From an uncultured archaeon (GTDB lineage: Archaea; Iainarchaeota; Iainarchaeia; Iainarchaeales; DATDZZ01): 32,000 nt of DNA. The notes beneath the pieces are model-generated. The model saw only the letters and a program-made list of their open reading frames with translations, made no database searches and was not told the DNA's origin. Shown here piece after piece: positions 679 to 25,185 of this stretch. The DNA lies in the NCBI GenBank assembly GCA_964373795.1, contig CAYJVY010000001.1, positions 71,537-103,536 on the forward strand, written 5' to 3'. The first letter of the stretch is position 1; each line of letters begins with the position of its first letter. The position numbers and the translations under genes were made by a program.

Positions 679-3600
679 TTATTCTTCTATGTCTTCAATG
701 CCGTTTTCTGTTACTCTGTAAATTGCTTCTCCGTCTGGCAGGGAAGGAGAGTCAACTAGTTTTGCTACTCTTTTATCTTCTTTGGATTTTCTTAAGTAAA
801 GCCTGGTTTTGCTGTTGTGTACAATGAATCCATTAGCTATGTAGTTTTCGTGCATTGGAACACTTAAGTCATATAATGGTTTTGTGTTTTTTTCTTCTTT
901 TACTGATGTGACTTTTTCAAAATCTATTTGTCCTGCCATTATATTCTGCAAGAATGTTTTCTTTTGTTTCTGAATAGAGGTTTTTGTTTCAATTTCTTGA
1001 AGAACTTTGTTGACTTTTTCTAGTTCTTGTGCAGTTATGTATTTGTATTGCTTTGATTTCAAAGCATTTGTAGGATATTTCATTAGCTCTGATAAAAACT
1101 CTTTGAGTTCTCTTCTCTTGATTGGAATTACTTTTTTGCTTTGCGTGTAGTCAAATGTTTTACTCCAGTATTCGAGCTTTTCTTTTTTATCTGTTGCTGT
1201 TAAACTAATTAGTTCTGCATATTTTACCACGTTTTCGCTAAACAACTCTAATGAATAAAATTCTCCTTTGTTGTAATCTATTATTCTTGAAGTTATTCCA
1301 AATCTTAGTAAAAGCAACTGAATTATTTCCAATGTTCTTAAATCTTTTTGTGAAACACTTAATCTGCGTATTTTCTTATCCACGCTTCCTTCTGCATCAA
1401 AGAATCCTTTAATGAATGCCTTTACTACTTGTTTTGGGCTTTTAGATGCAAGCTCTAAACCTGTTTGTTTTAGTTCTTTCATTAGGTTTCTTATTTTTTT
1501 ATTGTTTAATTCTAGTTGATAACAGTTTTTTCCTGAAGCCTTTGACATAGCGCCTTTTCTGCCAAAGACCTTGCCAAGCAAAGCATTGTATTCTTCTAGT
1601 ACTTGTTTTCTAGAGTCTTTGAATTCAATGCTTCTTTTATTAGTGTTTGCATCTCCAATAAAGTAACCAGTCAGTTGTGCCAAATCTTCGCTGAAATCTT
1701 CTGGAACTGTTATTAGTTTGTGTTTGTTTGTCTCAATCTTTTGTACTTCTTTAAGCAATTGTTGGCTTACTCCATTCTGGACAAGCAAATCAACATTTAT
1801 TGCATGCATTGGATATTGTTGGTTTAAGAATCTTCTAAGTTGTCTTGGTGTAACTTCTAAAACCTTGCAAGCCTCTTTTCTTGAAAGTTGCATTTCTTTC
1901 AAGGAATTTTTTATTAATTCCGCGCCTTGCTTGTTAACAACAACTATTTCTTCTGGAACGGTTTTTGAAATTTTTTGAACACTTCCTTCAATGTCTAAGT
2001 ATTTTGCTTTCATTAAATAGTCTCCTTTTCTTATCTTCTTTGCAGTCAATTCTTTTACATTCAATCCATCTAGAACAAAAAACCTGTGGTCTGGAGAGGC
2101 AGTAATTTTGCTTCCTGCATTTATTGCGAAAACTTTGCTTATTTCATTATTAACTGATTTTTGTTCAATAACTGCTCTATCTATTTTCATCTCATTTAAC
2201 CAAGTTGACATTACTTCCAAGCCATTGAGTTTGCCTATTTCTTGTATGCTACCATCTTGACACTGAACTAAAGTATTTGACGCAAGACAAGCATGTCCAA
2301 CTACATTTCCACCAATTGGTTCTGTTGGATCTCCAAATAATACATCTGGTTTGCTCATTACTTGATTTGTTACCAGTACTGCTAAATTATTTAGCTCTGC
2401 AATTTTTTGCAATGTTCGCATATGCTTGTTTAGTTTTTGCTGTCTGTCTGCTAGCATCCCTCTTCCAATGAATTCAGATCTGAATTGAGCTGTAAGAGAA
2501 TCAACTATTAATAGTTTAACATTTTTTTCTTTAATCATGTCTGCTGCTTTTTCAACTAAAAGCATTTGATGATCTGCGTTATAGGCTCTTCCAACAAAAA
2601 TGTTTTTTAAAACCTTTTCAGGATCTAAACCAATGTGTTCTGCTATTGCTTGAACTCTTTCAGGACGAAAAGAATTCTCTGAATCAATATACAAACACGA
2701 ACCTTCTAAACCTCCTTGCTCTTTAGGAAGTTGAACTGTTACAGCTGTTTGAAAACACCATTGAGTGTTATGCATGAATACTGGTTTATTTCCTCCAATA
2801 AAACTGTGTGTTTCAGGAACATTTAAATCATAAACCCAATCATTGTATTCTTTTTTTTCAATTTTTGTTATTTTTTCCCATTGAATTATATTTTCTGAAA
2901 GTATTCGCAAAATATTTATGTCTTTATATAATTCCGAGTCTTTTGTAATTTGGTCAATCATTTCAGTTAATCTATTTGCTATTAATTGTGCTTTTTCTGT
3001 TGGAATATTTCTTGTTATATAATTTTGAAAAGAAGATTTTTTCATTTGAAGATTTTTTCTCACAGTATCTGTTTTAAATGGAAGAATTTTTAAGACTTGA
3101 ATTATGTTTTCTTTGTTTTGCTTTTTAAGTAGTTTTTTTGCTTCAATTAATTCATTTAATCTTAGTTGAAAGAAATTCACCATTTCTTTTAAGGTTTCAA
3201 TTGTAATTCTATTGTTGTATGGCTGTCTTGCAAAAAAGTTTCCAAATAAAGTAATGTTATATTTTTGCATTTCTTTTTTGTTCCATTTATTGAATCTTCT
3301 TCTTGAACCGCTTAGCTTTGCATAAACTCTTTTATAAATTTGGTTAATTTCTTTAATTGGCACTCCATATTTATATGACTTGTTTTTGTTTGAAGAAAGT
3401 TTTACATTTTTTGTTTTAGATTTTGCCATTAATTCATCAATTATTTTTTTGCTTTTTGAATCAGTTATTGATACTTTATAATATGTGTTGCCTTTGTATT
3501 TTCCTTTTTTTAAAATATGTTGTTTTATTGTTGAGGGAACGCCAAGTATTGAAAGCAAGTAAGTTAGTTGTTCTGCCAGAGTTTGCGATTTAGTTGTCAA

Positions 3601-4656
3601 CTCAACTATTTTTCTTAGACAGCCGTCTCCTTCAATATAACCCCTCAAGAATTCTTTTATTGATTCTTTGCTGCTATTCAAGATTTTTTCTGGAATAAAT
3701 TTATTGCCTGCTTTACATTTTCTTAATTCACTTAAAAATTCTTTTGTTGGTTTTTGAAAGATTATTAAGTTTTTAGCTTTAGTAAACCTTGGTTTGTAGT
3801 TAAATCTCTTTTCAATATAGCTTATTAACCATTTTTGAATTGTTTCATCAAAAATTGTTATACTACAAGGATTTGCACAACCTTCTGCTACAAACAACCC
3901 CAAAAAATAAGCATCTTCCTCAGTAACTTCGTTGACTGAGTGATTTAAATCAATTTTTGTAGGTGCACCAATAAAATCTCCTTCTTTTAATAAACCAGTT
4001 GACTTCCATTGAATTCCGTCTTCATTTAATGAAAGCAAAGGATGCTGTTCCGTTAACTCAATTATTCCCCCTCGTTCTGTTTCAATTTTTACAATTTCTT
4101 TAGCAAATTCTTTGTATAGTTTTGAAACTTCTTTTTTTAGTTCTTTACCATTTTTATCTATTCCTATTACTTTAATTGGTTTTTTCAAATCTGCAACAAA
4201 ACCTGAATCAAACTCTTGTTCATTTAAAGCATAATTTTTATAAATTTCTTCAATAGAAGTTAAGTGAACCATGTTTGGATTAAAGTATAAGATTTGAGTA
4301 TTTTTTGCAACACATTTACTCGACGCAAATTTTCCATAAATCTCTGTAATGCTTTGAGATTCAATTCCACCGCCAATTAATTTGTCTACTTCTTTTGAAC
4401 CAGTAGTAATTCTTCCAATTGTTTTTCTTTTCTCTGCAAGCTCTAAAGCAGTATCAAAACCCATTTCCAAAGCATCTCTTGCTGCCTTAATTGCTTTATC
4501 TGCTGTGCCTTCCCCTAAAGAAGCTGCTTCCATTAACTCCATTGGAGAAGCAGTTGCGATTGATTCAAGAGATTTATATCCAGCAGAAAAAAGTTTTTCC
4601 AATGCTTGCGGGCCAATGCCTGGCAAGTCAGCTACTTCTTGAATTTTTTTAGCCAT
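679..4656 (-). CDS. radA: RadA recombinase precursor carrying two inteins (mature extein about 317 aa)
   Basis: N-terminal HhH domain ([25 protein letters not shown]). Split Walker A: YGKFASSK | intein | TQWCFQ. Walker B is [17 protein letters not shown]-terminal core: GGNVVGHA | intein | [16 protein letters not shown] lies 8 nt upstream of the ATG. Confidence 0.9.
814..2289 (-). mobile_element. Intein 2 (492 aa, LAGLIDADG type) inserted after GGNVVGHA in RadA
   Basis: aa 790-1281. Starts with Cys (TGT at 2287-2289; [13 protein letters not shown]). Block B is [20 protein letters not shown] motifs [11 protein letters not shown] and [12 protein letters not shown]. Ends [21 protein letters not shown] (AAC at 814-816), followed by +1 Ser. 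Confidence 0.85.
2767..4314 (-). mobile_element. Intein 1 (516 aa, LAGLIDADG homing-endonuclease type) inserted in the RadA P-loop
   Basis: aa 115-630. Starts with Cys (TGT at 4312-4314; [11 protein letters not shown]). Block B is LTEQHPLL. Two LAGLIDADG motifs ([22 protein letters not shown]). Ends ...[23 protein letters not shown] (AAC at 2767-2769), followed by +1 Thr. Confidence 0.85.
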
Positions 4657-12240: not shown

Positions 12241-14133
12241 ATGCTTTCAACAACTCAGGCAAGTGAATTTGATAATTTAGTTAAAACAGTAATGCAATAT
12301 AATGCTTCAATAAACATTAATGCATTCAAAAACGCGTTTAGTTTACTTGAAAAATATAATGCAGTACATTGGAAGACAAAAAAGCCTTTCGTTGAAATTG
12401 ATTTAATTCTAGCAAACATGTTAGCAGATTTAAATTTGGATAGCGCTACAATAATTGCTGCATTATTATATCATCCTTTTATTTATTCAGGGTTAACAGA
12501 AAAAGAAGTTGAGCAAGTTAACTCTGAAAGTAAAAATATTTTAAATAATTTAAAAAAATTCAAAGAATACGAAGAAAAGATTTCAAGCAAAGAAGACTTG
12601 CAAAAACTTGTTCTAGCAATGACTAAAGATCCAAGAATAATTATATTTAAAATGACTAAACAGTTAATGTATTTAAGGCTTGCAAACTTCATTGAACCAA
12701 ATCACATAAAAATTTGTGCTGATGCAGCAATGGAGATTTATGCTCCGATTGCACACAAACTTGGAATAAATAAAATTAAATCAGAATTAGAGGATTTAGC
12801 ATTCAAATACTTACAACCAGATACTTATGAGGGATTAGAAGAAAAAATTACAGCACTTGAAAGAGAAGACAATCTTAAAACAATTAAAAAAATAATGGAA
12901 GACGAATTAGCAAAAAATGAAGTTAATGCAGTTATATTTGGCCGCCCAAAACATATTTTCAGTATTTATAAAAAAATGCAGAGAAAAGAAAAACCATTTG
13001 AAGAAATATATGATTTAACTGGGTTAAGAATAATTTGTGAAACAAAAAAAGAATGCTATGAAATTCTTGGAATAATTCATTCCTTATGGAAACCCTTGCC
13101 AGGAGAATTTGATGACTACATTGCAAAACCAAAACCAAACATGTATCAAAGTTTGCATACAGCTTTAATTGGCCCGGATAAAAGAGTCTTCGAAGTACAA
13201 ATTAGAACAAAAGAAATGGATAAAGTGGCTGAATACGGTTATGCTGCTCATTGGAAATATAAAGGATATAAATCAGACAAAAAATGGGAGAAAAAACTTG
13301 CATGGGTTAAACAAATGATGGCTTGGAGACAAGACTTAAGAAAGTCATCTGAATTTATGGATTCATTAAAATCGGATTTCTTTGAAGACGAAATATTTGT
13401 TTTCACTCCAAAAAGGCAAGTAATTGAATTGCCTCAAGGATCTACTGCGTTAGACTTTGCTTACTCTATTCATACTGAAATAGGACATAAATGCAGTAAA
13501 GCAAAAGTAAACAACAAACTCGTGCAATTAGGATATGAATTGCATTCAGGAGATACGGTGGAAATACTCACTTCTGAAAATCAAGAACCAAAAAGAGACT
13601 GGATTACAATGGTTAAAACAAGCAAAGCTAAAACAAAGATCAGACAAAAACTTCAATTAAAAGCAATTCATAAAAAAGAAGAACAAATTAAAACACTGAA
13701 AAGTTTAGTAATAAAAAAATTAAATGATGAAGACATTAGGTTAGCGAAATGCTGTTTGCCTATTCCAGGAGATGAGGTTTTAGGATATTACACTACTAAA
13801 AGAAAAACAATTGTTCATAGAACTAATTGCGCTAATGCAGGAAAACAAAAAAGCAGTAACAGGTTAATAAGTGTTGCCTGGGATGTAAAAGGCAATGACA
13901 AGTTTTTAACAGAAGTAAGAGTTGAATTTCAAGATACTCCTGGAATGCTATCAGAACTACTTAAAGCATTCTCTAATTCAAATATTTCAATTAAGTCAAC
14001 TGATGCAAAAACAATTGATTCAAATAAGTCAAGAGCAATTTTTACATTTGATGCAAAAAACGTGGAAGAGGTAGCAAAACTAACAGACAAACTTGCAAAA
14101 ATAAAAGGAGTAACATTTGTTGAAAGAGCCTAA
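12241..14133 (+). CDS. Long RelA/SpoT homologue ((p)ppGpp synthetase; hydrolase motifs degenerate) with TGS, CC and ACT-like regions
   Basis: 630 aa. Synthetase motifs: GRPKHIFSIYKKM, DLTGLRII, DDYIAKPKPNMYQSLHT, EVQIRTKEMDKVAEYGYAAHWKYK. TGS: VFTPKRQVIELPQGSTALDFAYSIHTEIGHKC. Conserved-Cys region: CCLPIPGDEVLGYYT...VHRTNC. The HD-domain positions read AALLYHPF instead of AALLHD, and TKQLMYL instead of ADRLHNM. Confidence 0.85.
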   Translation: MLSTTQASEFDNLVKTVMQYNASININAFKNAFSLLEKYNAVHWKTKKPFVEIDLILANMLADLNLDSATIIAALLYHPFIYSGLTEKEVEQVNSESKNILNNLKKFKEYEEKISSKEDLQKLVLAMTKDPRIIIFKMTKQLMYLRLANFIEPNHIKICADAAMEIYAPIAHKLGINKIKSELEDLAFKYLQPDTYEGLEEKITALEREDNLKTIKKIMEDELAKNEVNAVIFGRPKHIFSIYKKMQRKEKPFEEIYDLTGLRIICETKKECYEILGIIHSLWKPLPGEFDDYIAKPKPNMYQSLHTALIGPDKRVFEVQIRTKEMDKVAEYGYAAHWKYKGYKSDKKWEKKLAWVKQMMAWRQDLRKSSEFMDSLKSDFFEDEIFVFTPKRQVIELPQGSTALDFAYSIHTEIGHKCSKAKVNNKLVQLGYELHSGDTVEILTSENQEPKRDWITMVKTSKAKTKIRQKLQLKAIHKKEEQIKTLKSLVIKKLNDEDIRLAKCCLPIPGDEVLGYYTTKRKTIVHRTNCANAGKQKSSNRLISVAWDVKGNDKFLTEVRVEFQDTPGMLSELLKAFSNSNISIKSTDAKTIDSNKSRAIFTFDAKNVEEVAKLTDKLAKIKGVTFVERA

Positions 14134-19939: not shown

Positions 19940-20026
19940 TCAAAACCCTATTTTCTTATTAAAAACTACTAACAAACCTTTAATTTTCTTTCTCTTTAGG
20001 CAACTTACACTTTTTCTTTCTTTTGC

Positions 20027-20051
20027 AAGCTTTTCTTTTTAAGAAAAGCTT
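20027..20051. promoter_or_regulatory. Perfect 25-bp palindrome in the divergent lysS / methyltransferase intergenic region
   Basis: AAGCTTTTCTT-TTT-AAGAAAAGCTT: 11-bp arms with a 3-nt centre. It lies 47 nt upstream of the ATG at 20098. Confidence 0.4.
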
Positions 20052-20097
20052 AAGGCAGGAGGAAAAGGTTAAATAAGAATTAAAAAACAAATATGTT

Positions 20098-20796: not shown

Positions 20797-20960
20797 AATT
20801 TTTTTAATAACTATTTTTCTAACCCTAATCAAAACAACTGCAACAAACAATGCATTAATTGCTGCTCCTAGATATGTGTGAAAAAAATCATGCAAATAAT
20901 CTGCACACGGAAAAATAAACAAATAAATGATGGTTCAACAATCACATGTGTTTAATATGA

Positions 20961-21040
20961 CAGCCTCACCGGCTGTTGACTCAGCCACGCCGGCTGTTGA
21001 CTCAGCTTCGTCGGCTGATCGCTTCAGCCACGCCGGCTGA
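20961..21040. repeat. G+C-rich tandem array of four stem-loops (21-nt period)
   Basis: Hairpins share the stem CAGCC/GGCTG at 20961-20975, 20982-20996, 21002-21018 and 21024-21040. There is a direct repeat GGCTGTTGACTCAGC at 20971-20985 and 20992-21006. G+C is 52/80 by my count. Confidence 0.7.
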
Positions 21041-21103
21041 ACGGCGAAAGAAAAGATTAGTGGGAAGAGCGGGAGTTGAACCCGCGACACCACGGTCTTC
21101 AGC

Positions 21104-21148
21104 TTCACCCAAACCAAACCAATATTCAACGAATTGACTTAGGTTTGT
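21104..21148 (-). other. tRNA-Phe intron 3 (45 nt, position 30/31 in the anticodon stem)
   Basis: Relaxed BHB: AG-CACA-[CG|A]-CAAACC ... GGTTTG-GGTG-[AA|G]-CT. The central helix has 3 Watson-Crick pairs plus one A.G mismatch. Splicing restores the stem CACGG/CCGTG. Confidence 0.65.
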
Positions 21149-21160
21149 CGTGTGCTCTCC

Positions 21161-21202
21161 TGAGCCAAAAATAAGGATTCCGATATGGCTCCTAAATTTT
21201 TT
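21161..21202 (-). other. tRNA-Phe intron 2 (42 nt, inside the D-loop)
   Basis: BHB: CTC-AGCC-[TG|A]-AAAAA ... TTTTT-GGCT-[CA|G]-GAG. The central helix is perfect. Splicing restores the D-loop AGCCTGGGA. Confidence 0.75.
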
Positions 21203-21212
21203 CAGGCTGAGC

Positions 21213-21251
21213 CGAAGGTTATTATTCCTTAATAAAAAAAAGGCTAATAAT
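21213..21251 (-). other. tRNA-Phe intron 1 (39 nt, position 9/10)
   Basis: BHB: GGG-AAGG-[TA|A]-TTATTA ... TAATAA-CCTT-[CG|G]-CTC. The central 4-bp helix is perfect and both bulges are 3 nt. Confidence 0.7.
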
Positions 21252-21342
21252 TACCTTCCCAGCTGAGAGTCAAAAAGACCCTAGCTTTCCCACTAAATAG
21301 AATTTACTAAGTGAAAGATTTTAAAAGTTGCTATTAAAAGAG

Positions 21343-21483
21343 CTATTTCATAAAAGGTTTAAGGTTTTCAGCTTTGCCAAGGTATTTTACAACTCTTTGT
21401 CTAGCTCCATTACTAGTCCAATGACTTTCAACTAAATAGTAATAAATTTGTCCGTGAATTACTTTTTTTCGAACAAAACTCAT
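21343..21483 (-). CDS. Hypothetical 46-aa basic protein
   Basis: Trimmed from the 100-aa track ORF, whose 5' part overlaps tRNA-Lys. Sequence is MSFVRKKVIHGQIYYYLVESHWTSNGARQRVVKYLGKAENLKPFMK. The K-x-G-x-YYYLVES...G...R-x-VKYLG pattern recalls the N-terminal segment of some IS1634-type transposases; this is from memory and not verified. Confidence 0.35.
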   Translation of the reverse strand: MSFVRKKVIHGQIYYYLVESHWTSNGARQRVVKYLGKAENLKPFMK

Positions 21484-21488
21484 AACAT

Positions 21489-21502
21489 GTTTTAGGCACC
21501 AG
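21489..21502 (-). repeat. Motif copy A: CTGGTGCCTAAAAC (minus strand)
   Basis: Plus strand reads GTTTTAGGCACCAG. It lies 5 nt upstream of the ATG of the 46-aa ORF. Confidence 0.8.
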
Positions 21503-21556
21503 AATTGATTTAAATATATTCTTTTCTCCTCTAAAAAAAAGGAATTTAAAGGAGAG

Positions 21557-21571
21557 ATTTTAGGCACCAGG
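21557..21571 (-). repeat. Motif copy B: CCTGGTGCCTAAAAT (minus strand)
   Basis: Plus strand reads ATTTTAGGCACCAGG. It lies 69 nt upstream of copy A and 42 nt downstream of the tRNA-Lys 3' end. Confidence 0.8.
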
Positions 21572-21613
21572 ATACTAAAATAATAAAAAGATTGAAGAAT
21601 TCCTGGTAGAAAA

Positions 21614-21687
21614 CGAGCCTGGGGGGATTTGAACCCTCGACACACGGCTTAAAAGGCCGCTGCTCTACCAGGCTGAGCTACAGGCCC
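21614..21687 (-). tRNA. tRNA-Lys(UUU), intron-less
   Basis: Minus strand reads GGGCCTGTAGCTCAGCCTGGTAGAGCAGCGGCCTTTTAAGCCGTGTGTCGAGGGTTCAAATCCCCCCAGGCTCG. 7-bp acceptor stem, D arm GCTC/GAGC, anticodon loop CTTTTAA, T loop TTCAAAT. Confidence 0.9.
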
Positions 21688-21743
21688 GTTATAAAGGAAA
21701 TAGGTTAACGAAAACAATTTATAACTAATTGTTGAAACAAGAA

Positions 21744-23027
21744 TTATTTTTTTACAGTTAATTCTTTTAATCCATTCATGTAAGGATGTAAAGCCTTTGG
21801 AATTTTAACACTTCCATCCTTTTGTTGAAAGGTTTCCAAAATAATTCTTAAAACTCTGGAAGTAGCAATCATTGTATTATTTAAAGTGTGAACAAATTCT
21901 TTTTCTCCATTCTTTTTCCTGAATTTAATGTTAGAGCGAACTGCTTGATATGAAGTGCAGTTACTGCAACTCATTAACTCAATAAATTTTTCTTCCCTAG
22001 GAGAAAAACCTTCAATGTCATATTTTTTTGCAGCAATAGATCCAATGTCTCCAGTGCAAACATTTACAACTCTATAAGGAATTTCAAGTTTTTGAAGCAA
22101 TTCCTCAGAGTTTTTAAGCAATTCTTCATGCAACCTCCAAGAATCATTTGGATGGCAAAGAATTACTTGTTCAACTTTATTAAATTGATGAACTCTAAAC
22201 AAACCTCTTTCATCAATTGAATGCTTGCCAATTTCTTTTCTAAAACACGGAGACAAACCAGTTAACTTAATTGGAAGCACTTCTTCAGATAAAATGTCAT
22301 TAGAATAAAGAGAAACTAATGGATGTTCTGAAGTAGCAATCAAAAACAATTCTTCTCCTTCAATTTTGTATAAAACCTCTTTAAAGTAATTTAAATCAGT
22401 TACTCCTTCGTAAGCCTTTTTTCGCAGCAGGAAAGGAGGTTCAATAAAAGTAAAACCTTTTTTTAAAAGCAAATCAATTCCAAATCTCTGCAAAGCCAAA
22501 TCAAGCAAAGCAATATCTCCTTTCAAATAATAAAATCCTGAACCAGAAACTTGAACTGCTTTTTTAAAATCAGCTCCTCCAAGTCTTTCAGCTAATTCTC
22601 CGTGATGAAGCAAATTAAAATCGGATTTAACTGGTTTGCCATGAGTTTTCACTACAACATTTTCAGAATCATCTTTTCCAATTGGAACAGATTCATGCAA
22701 AATATTTGGAATCCTCATTAAATAAAAATTAATTTGCTCTCTTAAAACATTTTGACTTTCCTCTAAATCCTTAATTCTAGAAGGTAATTCCTTTGCTTCT
22801 TGAATTAATTTTTTAGCATCCTTTTTCTGCTTTAAAAGAACCTCGATTTCTTTGGTTAAATCATTTCTTTTCTTTCTAAGAGACTCGGTTTCTTGAAGTA
22901 ACAACCTATATTTTTCATCCTTTACAAGCAAATCCTTTATCCAAGGAAGTTTCTCTAAATCATTTCTTTTCCTCAAATCTGCTTCAACAAGAACAGGATT
23001 TTCTCTAATAAACTTAATTTCAAGCAT
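21744..23027 (-). CDS. serS: Seryl-tRNA synthetase (bacterial-type)
   Basis: 427 aa. N-terminal coiled-coil arm. Class II motifs: LTGLSPCFRKEIG...GLFRVHQFNKVE (motif 2) and NNTMIATSRVLRIILE (motif 3 region). Confidence 0.9.
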   Translation of the reverse strand: MLEIKFIRENPVLVEADLRKRNDLEKLPWIKDLLVKDEKYRLLLQETESLRKKRNDLTKEIEVLLKQKKDAKKLIQEAKELPSRIKDLEESQNVLREQINFYLMRIPNILHESVPIGKDDSENVVVKTHGKPVKSDFNLLHHGELAERLGGADFKKAVQVSGSGFYYLKGDIALLDLALQRFGIDLLLKKGFTFIEPPFLLRKKAYEGVTDLNYFKEVLYKIEGEELFLIATSEHPLVSLYSNDILSEEVLPIKLTGLSPCFRKEIGKHSIDERGLFRVHQFNKVEQVILCHPNDSWRLHEELLKNSEELLQKLEIPYRVVNVCTGDIGSIAAKKYDIEGFSPREEKFIELMSCSNCTSYQAVRSNIKFRKKNGEKEFVHTLNNTMIATSRVLRIILETFQQKDGSVKIPKALHPYMNGLKELTVKK

Positions 23028-24220: not shown

Positions 24221-24331
24221 AACACAAATAGTTGGACAAAAAAATACAATTCTAAAACCCTTTAAAACCCATTTAAATGCGTAATAAACCAGTTTTATCA
24301 ATATTTTAATATAATACAACCCAAAAATAAT

Positions 24332-24406
24332 AGCGGGGTAGGGCAGTCTGGAGTGCCCGTCGGGCTCATAACCCGAAGGTCAAAGGTTCAAATCCTTTCC
24401 CCGCTA
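24332..24406 (+). tRNA. Initiator tRNA-Met(CAU)
   Basis: AGCGGGGTAGGGCAGTCTGGAGTGCCCGTCGGGCTCATAACCCGAAGGTCAAAGGTTCAAATCCTTTCCCCGCTA. It has an A1:U72 pair and three G:C pairs closing the anticodon stem (GGG/CCC). Both are archaeal/eukaryal initiator hallmarks. Anticodon loop is CTCATAA. Confidence 0.9.
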
Positions 24407-24728: not shown

Positions 24729-25185
24729 GGTTTTAAATATTTTAAAAAAAACTTTAAACAAAATTGGAAAGTATTTAGTTAGATTTACTGGAAAAGAGGA
24801 CAACACCCATGCTTCCACTATTAGTGACAACTCTAAATCTATATATGAAAAAGAGGAAAAAAAAGAGGAATTTATAGATGAAATTTATTCGATATGGGAT
24901 TATCTAGAGTTTAAGGAAAACACACAAGCATATTATTTGGTTAAGATAATGGGCTTTGAAGAATGGATATCAATGGAAGAGATTAAAAGAAGAATTTTAG
25001 AATTGTTTGGGGTTTCGTTTAAGCATGAAAAAAGCTTATATTCTTATTTAAAAACACTTGTTGATGCAGGGTTGTTGGAGTATTCAAACCATGGTGGGAG
25101 AAGGTTATGGAGAAAAAAGGATTTGATAATTAGACTAAAAAAGAAAAAAGAAAAGTCTTTAACTAGTGAATTACAAATTACTTAA
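24727..25185 (+). CDS. Hypothetical protein with a probable C-terminal winged-helix DNA-binding domain
   Basis: 152 aa. ISMEEIKRRILELFGVSFKHEKSLYSYLKTLVDAGLLEYSNHGGRRLWRK looks like helix-turn-helix plus a wing. No family assignment is possible by eye. Confidence 0.4.
   Translation: MVLNILKKTLNKIGKYLVRFTGKEDNTHASTISDNSKSIYEKEEKKEEFIDEIYSIWDYLEFKENTQAYYLVKIMGFEEWISMEEIKRRILELFGVSFKHEKSLYSYLKTLVDAGLLEYSNHGGRRLWRKKDLIIRLKKKKEKSLTSELQIT

Follow-up and report, generated by a model that had tools for sequence, protein, structure and literature searches.

A tRNA-Phe(GAA) gene of a DPANN archaeon, very probably interrupted by three short introns outside the canonical 37/38 site

A 32-kb stretch of DNA from an uncultured archaeon (contig CAYJVY010000001.1; the whole of the stretch analysed is called the window here) raises the question of whether its minus strand, from 21260 to 21061, encodes a tRNA-Phe(GAA) in four pieces, and whether the three interruptions are introns of the kind removed at bulge-helix-bulge (BHB) motifs. 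A sequence-only reading had proposed both, and its minus-strand reading and coordinates were found to be exact when the DNA was read again. We conclude that this low-GC DPANN archaeon very probably encodes its tRNA-Phe(GAA) here, in a gene that three short introns interrupt at positions 9/10, G18/G19, and 30/31. Introns 1 and 2 are strict BHB introns, and intron 3 has the relaxed form of the motif.

Anatomy of the gene and its spliced product

All coordinates are those of the window, and the order of exons and introns is that read along the minus strand, where four exons follow one another in order with spacings of 39, 42, and 45 nt:

21252..21260, minus strand: exon 1, GGGAAGGTA, tRNA positions 1-9
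21213..21251, minus strand: intron 1, 39 nt, at position 9/10; GC content 23%, with a run of eight T (T8) at 21241-21234
21203..21212, minus strand: exon 2, GCTCAGCCTG, positions 10-18
21161..21202, minus strand: intron 2, 42 nt, in the D-loop between G18 and G19
21149..21160, minus strand: exon 3, GGAGAGCACACG, positions 19-30
21104..21148, minus strand: intron 3, 45 nt, at position 30/31
21061..21103, minus strand: exon 4, from position 31 to the discriminator A73, with the anticodon loop CUGAAGA, the variable loop, the T arm, and the 3' acceptor strand

Removal of the introns yields a 74-nt tRNA-Phe(GAA). The sequence-only reading had drawn this product as a canonical cloverleaf, and ARAGORN run on the spliced 74-mer gave a clean call of that same cloverleaf, to which intronless relatives are nearly identical (see below). 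The stems consist of an acceptor stem of 7 bp with one G.U pair, a D stem of 4 bp, an anticodon stem of 5 bp, and a T stem of 5 bp, with zero mismatches, and the conserved bases U8, A14, G15, G18, G19, G20, A21, U33, G37, the T-loop, and A73 are all kept. CCA is not encoded at the end of exon 4. The GC content of the exons is 63.5%, in contrast to 31% for the introns and about 30% for the window as a whole. None of the introns lies at the canonical 37/38 site, and the anticodon loop is uninterrupted.

As one strand holds three introns in a span of 200 nt and the exons are colinear, the locus is a multiple-intron gene, defined as one with at least two introns. It is not a split or permuted tRNA gene of the types found in Nanoarchaeum and Caldivirga, as the exons are colinear and contiguous but for introns of 39-45 nt. 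Group I and group II introns were also considered and rejected, given that length against a ribozyme core of hundreds of nucleotides.

The earlier expectation that standard annotation would easily miss this gene held for both tools applied to the unspliced locus. ARAGORN made no call there, including in its intron mode, and there was no match to the Rfam tRNA model at gathering or at permissive thresholds; the 3' exon alone gave a weak tRNA-like match, from the tmRNA model of Rfam at 21058-21120.

Bulge-helix-bulge geometry and its recurrence in related loci

Relatives were collected by a pattern scan on the uninterrupted 3' part of the gene (CTGAAGA-N5-GTGTCGCGG-N-TTCAA-N-T-N-CCGC), which yielded 32 loci from a genome collection and 31 from a metagenome collection; 62 related loci, labelled here with L and a number, were examined. 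Many of the loci found by the scan belong to metagenome-assembled genomes (MAGs) of Iainarchaeum, Nanoarchaeota, and Micrarchaeota. When a GGGAA/TTCCC acceptor was required, the metagenome scan gave 0 matches, and the 31 loci obtained with the looser pattern included no close relative; the source genome turned up in neither collection. A scan of viral contigs also gave 0 matches. The spliced 74-mer is identical at 70 of 74 positions to the spliced product of L016, a one-intron relative, and at 69 of 74 to the intronless gene of L034, whose acceptor stem is the same down to the G7.U66 wobble.

The intron boundaries were placed by aligning the expected mature 5' part of the tRNA to the upstream DNA with long gaps free and without use of the motif. 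This alignment put the introns at 9/10, G18/G19, and 30/31, in agreement with the sites about 9/10, in the D-loop, and at 30/31 that had been read from the sequence. In the geometry h-H(4 bp)-[2/1]-h'...h'-H-[2/1]-h, where the slash within brackets marks the cut, each of the six cuts follows the second base of a 3-nt bulge. For intron 1, the strict motif is GCUGGG-AAGG-[UA/A]-UUAUUA...UAAUAA-CCUU-[CG/G]-CUCAGC, with all 4 pairs of the central helix H and an h' of 6 bp. The outer helix GCUGGG/CUCAGC also reaches 6 bp because three bases of the 5' leader (GCU) pair with A14-C16. Intron 2 is likewise strict, CUC-AGCC-[UG/A]-AAAAAU...AUUUUU-GGCU-[CA/G]-GAG, with 4 of 4 pairs in H, an h' of 6 bp, and an outer helix of 3 bp. 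The motif of intron 3, AG-CACA-[CG/A]-CAAACC...GGUUUG-GGUG-[AA/G]-CU, is relaxed, with 3 of 4 pairs in H, an h' of 6 bp, and an outer helix of 2 bp. A BHB had been claimed at each junction by the sequence-only reading; the placement of the six cuts stands, but the A28.G mismatch of intron 3 had gone unflagged and the outer helix of intron 1 had been underestimated.

To control for chance, the geometry was counted on both strands of the window per candidate pair of cut sites. The background frequency per candidate site pair was 7.8e-6 for the strict form and 1.3e-4 for the relaxed form, in line with the earlier remark that such consistency is hard to get by chance. Because the junctions were fixed independently by alignment to intronless relatives, the joint chance of the three fits is about 1e-14. 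One strict-geometry match, at the start of the tRNA-iMet gene (24301-24335), was read as a chance match in AT-rich sequence. The tRNA-Met gene itself (24332-24406, plus strand) has A1:U72, three G-C pairs closing the anticodon stem, and no intron; we take the A1:U72 pair and the three G-C pairs to be marks of an archaeal initiator. The strongest BHB-like score in the window belongs to a palindromic hairpin with bulges at about 20010-20070 (match at 20026-20057; core AAGCTTTTCTT-TTTA-AGAAAAGCTT), between divergent genes for a class II aminoacyl-tRNA synthetase and a methyltransferase, where no RNA gene is evident.

Introns are common among the relatives. About one third of the related loci carry them, and 22 distinct introns were found at about six sites: after nucleotide 4, after nucleotide 9, in the D-loop at G18/G19, at 21-23, and at 30/31. 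One geometry, with 3-nt bulges, a 4-bp helix, and a cut after the second bulge base, fits all 22 of these introns as well as the three of the window, and the first intron base is A in every case. In the 19 distinct junction pairs, in-register pairing was found in 95.2% of cells, versus 27-44% when the strands were slid by 1-3 columns; changes on both sides occurred in 11 of 11 pairs, and none of 500 shuffles reached the observed pairing or covariation.

Each site of the window gene recurs elsewhere. The 9/10 site of intron 1 is used in L016, where the outer helix is 5 bp and also includes leader bases; in intronless L034, the leader is non-complementary. The D-loop site of intron 2 is used in eight loci (L014, L020, L030, L031, L035, L037, L049, and L055), with the same GGCU, and across the D-loop introns h' covaries (AAAAA/UUUUU, AUGAA/UUCAU, ACGCA/UGCGU, UGCGG/CUGCA, and others). 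L039 has an intron at the 30/31 site of intron 3, where the motif is perfect and the outer helix is again AG/CU. Introns of 31-32 nt at 4/5 are present in L010 and L027. Non-canonical introns also occur in L010, L016, L027, L032, L039, L043, L047, L052, L057, and L061, with one or two per gene, and none of the other loci has more than two. Several of the intron-bearing MAGs are labelled Candidatus Iainarchaeum. When ARAGORN was run on ten intron-bearing relatives, it found no tRNA in most and miscalled two (L032 as Gly and L037 as Pro).

When 35 distinct mature sequences were aligned, 99.5% of the cloverleaf was paired and 12 of its 21 pairs showed compensatory changes, although in the intron-containing relatives the search for exons was guided by the complement of the 3' strand, which tilts those rows toward pairing.

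Folding of each junction, which had been suggested as a check, gave a mixed result. The intron 2 motif is the local minimum-energy fold, but the intron 1 motif lies 2.7 kcal/mol above a register-slipped hairpin, the local minimum for intron 3 is a near-motif with a 3-bp centre, and the minimum-energy fold of the whole precursor is without the bulges. Motifs 2 and 3 can form together, and neither conflicts with the acceptor and T stems. C11-C16 belong to the outer helix of the intron 1 motif, and the same bases form part of the outer and central helices of the intron 2 motif. Motifs 1 and 2 thus cannot coexist, and therefore introns 1 and 2 would be removed stepwise.

The introns were also searched for other content. 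No RUGAUGA box of a C/D-box guide RNA was seen on reading the three introns, and Rfam gave no intron match in 20800-21800 at E<=10.

Genomic setting, probable promoter and leader

Two genes stand directly upstream of the tRNA-Phe gene:

23027-21744, minus strand: SerRS, followed by tRNA-Lys
21688-21613, minus strand: tRNA-Lys(UUU), between SerRS and tRNA-Phe

Trm56 and TFE genes lie just beyond SerRS in the window. The same TFE-Trm56-SerRS-tRNA-Lys order was found in L006, a locus located through its SerRS, which has an intronless 74-nt tRNA-Phe. Many of the loci fetched with the tRNA pattern have homologues of the window SerRS, Trm56, TFE, and the open reading frame (ORF) at 25171-25761, and tRNA-Lys is often directly upstream of tRNA-Phe, as it is in the window. 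Because loci fetched by the tRNA alone share the SerRS, Trm56, TFE, and tRNA-Lys neighbours, the window gene stands at a conserved syntenic tRNA-Phe position.

The window also encodes RadA (with an intein and LAGLIDADG domains), RPA, the aTrm56 tRNA methyltransferase, TFE-alpha, SerRS, and a class II aminoacyl-tRNA synthetase, together with the bacterial-looking RelA/SpoT, TIM, and CorA. The best non-self matches of SerRS are 58-65% identical, and those with names belong to Diapherotrites/Iainarchaeum, Woesearchaeota, Nanoarchaeia, and Altiarchaeota. The host is thus an archaeon of the DPANN type, and none of its sequenced relatives is close. Neither an EndA gene nor a gene for an RtcB-type ligase is present within the 32-kb window; RtcB and Archease are encoded by the contig of the relative L004.

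The sequences that flank the gene include a probable promoter element, a leader, and a trailer:

21319..21326, minus strand: TATA-like box TTTTAAAA, a probable promoter element, with homologous boxes in L020 and L037
21261..21291, minus strand: 5' leader of 31 nt, GGGAAAGCUAGGGUCUUUUUGACUCUCAGCU, with a hairpin and a T5 run, the last 3 nt of which (GCU) join the outer helix of intron 1
21047..21056, minus strand: T-rich 3' trailer TCTTTTCTTT, a probable oligo-T termination signal

Oligo-T is a termination signal in archaea. In L020 and L037, the TTTTAAAA box and a homologous flank (TTCACTTAG...) stand 35 nt upstream of position +1 of tRNA-Phe, and a box of the TTTAAA type at about -36..-28 is common among the relatives. 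In the window, a 35-nt spacing from the box ends at GGGAAAGCUAG, where the 5' end of the tRNA is repeated in degenerate form (GGGAAAG), and the real 5' end lies 31 nt further on; the extra 31 nt may be a relic of a partial duplication. A fourth intron in this stretch was rejected, as none of six registers gave a BHB fit despite the flanking GGGAA direct repeat. Since it is not a fourth intron, we take the stretch to be a leader that would be removed by RNase P.

Starting 21 nt past the 3' end of tRNA-Phe, between convergent genes, there is a 21-nt tandem repeat of 3.7 copies (20961-21039), the unit of which is a GC-rich hairpin, CAGCC-N5-GGCTG (4 matches versus 0.09 expected). Three independent Logan contigs of the same organism, which carry the neighbouring methyltransferase gene, all end near this repeat, just short of the tRNA. 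Sequencing runs ERR4904390, ERR4904391, and ERR3478686 contain the same organism. A look-up of independent assemblies of the tRNA locus through the SerRS protein or a 46-aa upstream ORF found nothing.

Two further genes of the window and two relatives were noted. RadA/Rad51 (1325 aa, 679-4656, minus strand) is interrupted by intein-splicing, LAGLIDADG, and homing-endonuclease domains, probably of two inteins. A full-length RelA/SpoT-type protein (12241-14133, plus strand) has HD, RelA_SpoT, TGS, and ACT domains, and homologues of 36-43% identity are encoded near tRNA-Phe in L009, L025, L058, and others, which is unusual for archaea. L029 (NZ_JAEDAM010000051.1, 'Candidatus Vampirococcus lugosii') has an archaeal-type tRNA-Phe with G37, tRNA-Lys genes upstream, and Trm56 and TFE homologues, and L007 (JAFCCG010000019.1, a 'Chloroflexi bacterium' MAG) has an archaeal-type tRNA-Phe with G37 and a RelA/SpoT homologue. 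In both cases, DPANN archaeal contigs seem to have been binned into bacterial assemblies.

Alternative explanations, proposed processing, and known systems

Several points weigh against a functional three-intron gene. The central helix of intron 3, CACA/GGUG, contains the A28.G mismatch, and its outer helix is just 2 bp; no other locus has all three introns together, and intron 3 is without orthologous confirmation in a near relative, the best SerRS identity being 65%. In the minimum-energy fold of the whole 200-nt precursor, each intron forms a slipped hairpin in place of the bulges, and conformers that bear the motifs are predicted by the folding model to be 13-16 kcal/mol less stable, which weakens a purely thermodynamic argument. 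The T8 run in the loop of intron 1 (21234-21241) could act as an archaeal terminator; read-through must be common, however, because runs of eight or more T occur 8 times on the sense strand within 26 kb of window ORFs. The guided exon search, which favours pairing in the intron-containing rows, is to be counted here as well.

Some of these features would also be expected if the locus were a decaying or redundant copy, in which the insertions, intron 3 especially, are no longer all spliced and a second, intact tRNA-Phe elsewhere does the work. The 3 of 4 central pairs and the 2-bp outer helix of intron 3, the T8 run in intron 1 and the T5 run in the leader, and the unusually long 31-nt leader with its degenerate copy of the 5' end are all in its favour, and with 32 kb of genome in view a second intact gene is possible. 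We nevertheless consider decay improbable: the exon bases are intact at all conserved and identity positions with no stem mismatch, the locus occupies the syntenic site at which relatives keep their tRNA-Phe, motifs 1 and 2 are perfect, and the 2-bp AG/CU outer helix at 30/31 is shared with L039. Duplicate tRNA genes are rarely expected in the small genomes of DPANN archaea, which also counts against a redundant copy. Much less credible still is a chance assembly, in which a tRNA 3' half or tRNA-like fragment is completed into a cloverleaf from whatever lies upstream. By a rough estimate, three free deletions produce a loose cloverleaf from random AT-rich sequence fairly often, but here near-identity to intronless relatives sets the junctions, all three match a geometry whose background frequency is 8e-6 to 1.3e-4, introns with covarying helices occupy the same sites in other genomes, and the GC contrast between exons and introns is sharp, so that chance can practically be set aside.

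It is also conceivable that the insertions are real but are not removed by EndA at a BHB, or that the pieces are expressed separately in the manner of a split tRNA. The bulges are missing from the global minimum-energy fold, and split tRNA genes are known in Nanoarchaeota (PMC4033280). Against this, the exons follow one another in order along one strand in a span of 200 nt without promoter-like spacing between them, group I or II introns would be far longer than 39-45 nt, and the conserved 3-4-3 geometry is the exact substrate of EndA (PMC3239211). We regard removal by another route as very unlikely, though not to the same degree as a chance cloverleaf, and favour the reading of one interrupted gene with three BHB introns.

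From the anatomy, geometry, covariation, orthology, and synteny of this gene, we infer how it could be transcribed, cleaved, and ligated, and in what order. One precursor of about 230 nt would be transcribed, probably from the TTTTAAAA box about 66 nt upstream, with the 31-nt leader, and the T-rich trailer would end transcription. The exon flanks would pair with the intron ends into BHB motifs, in each of which a 4-bp helix separates two 3-nt bulges that lie on opposite strands. EndA would then cut after the second base of each bulge, at six bonds in total, with introns 1 and 2 removed one after the other, and an RtcB-type ligase would join the exons into the 74-nt tRNA, the leader being removed by RNase P. 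The sequence-only reading had inferred an endonuclease of relaxed specificity; tolerance of a relaxed motif would be called for mainly by intron 3, introns 1 and 2 being strict substrates. The alpha4 and alpha2 endonucleases have been described as needing the strict 3-4-3 motif; enzymes of the (alpha-beta)2 and epsilon2 types also take relaxed motifs (PMC3239211). According to Kaneta et al. 2018, alpha4 enzymes with an L3 loop occur in several DPANN lineages and are tied to more disrupted tRNA genes (PMC5829648).

Non-canonical introns of archaeal tRNA genes number from one to a maximum of three per gene, and multi-intron genes are concentrated in Thermoproteales (PMC3239211, PMC4033280), as the sequence-only reading had stated. 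The genes of Pyrobaculum, Thermofilum, and Caldivirga (Sugahara et al. 2007/2008, reviewed in PMC4033280 and PMC3239211) resemble the present gene in having up to three BHB introns at non-canonical positions, including D-arm and anticodon-stem regions, and in being missed by standard tRNA finders. Their hosts, however, are GC-rich hyperthermophiles of the TACK group with (alpha-beta)2 endonucleases and many relaxed motifs, whereas the host here is a DPANN archaeon of about 30% GC, and the strict 3-4-3 form is found in two of the three motifs. Closer in lineage is the pre-tRNA-Pro(GGG) of ARMAN-2 (Micrarchaeota, DPANN), which also has multiple non-canonical introns with strict hBHBh' motifs; it differs in being another tRNA and in its two T-loop introns (53/54 and 59/60), and its lineage uses the epsilon2 three-unit endonuclease (PMC3239211). 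The canonical archaeal intron at 37/38 shares the motif and presumably the enzymes (EndA and RtcB), in contrast to the position, which differs for all the window introns.

The Pacearchaeota, Woesearchaeota, and other DPANN archaea in which disrupted tRNA genes are described belong to the same broad lineage as the host here; the main text of the paper that reports those genes contains no specific three-intron tRNA-Phe or D-loop intron family (PMC5829648). The literature searched, which was incomplete, described neither a three-intron DPANN tRNA nor a tRNA-Phe D-loop intron family, and priority is not claimed. A wider proposal can be made only tentatively, and we hold it to be somewhat less probable than its negation: that this is the first described three-intron tRNA outside TACK and the tip of an unreported, DPANN-wide, position-conserved, mostly strict set of tRNA-Phe introns (with hot spots at 4/5, 9/10, 18/19, 21-23, and 30/31), with forced stepwise splicing of introns 1 and 2 and a leader that co-evolved as part of a motif.

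The known splicing mechanism is left unchanged by this finding. It extends multi-intron tRNA genes, at their known maximum of three introns, from the hot, GC-rich Thermoproteales to a low-GC DPANN lineage. Kaneta et al. 2018 take incomplete predicted tRNA sets as a sign of hidden disrupted genes (PMC5829648), and the window tRNA-Phe is an example of such a gene. Intron-bearing tRNA-Phe genes, which make up about a third of the fetched DPANN loci, are missed or miscalled by ARAGORN; their genomes would therefore look as if they had no tRNA-Phe, which would affect estimates of completeness and claims of dependence on a host. With the related loci, one tRNA can also be compared in natural forms that have 0, 1, 2, or 3 introns at recurring sites, a series that may be used to study the gain and loss of introns and their co-evolution with the specificity of the endonuclease.

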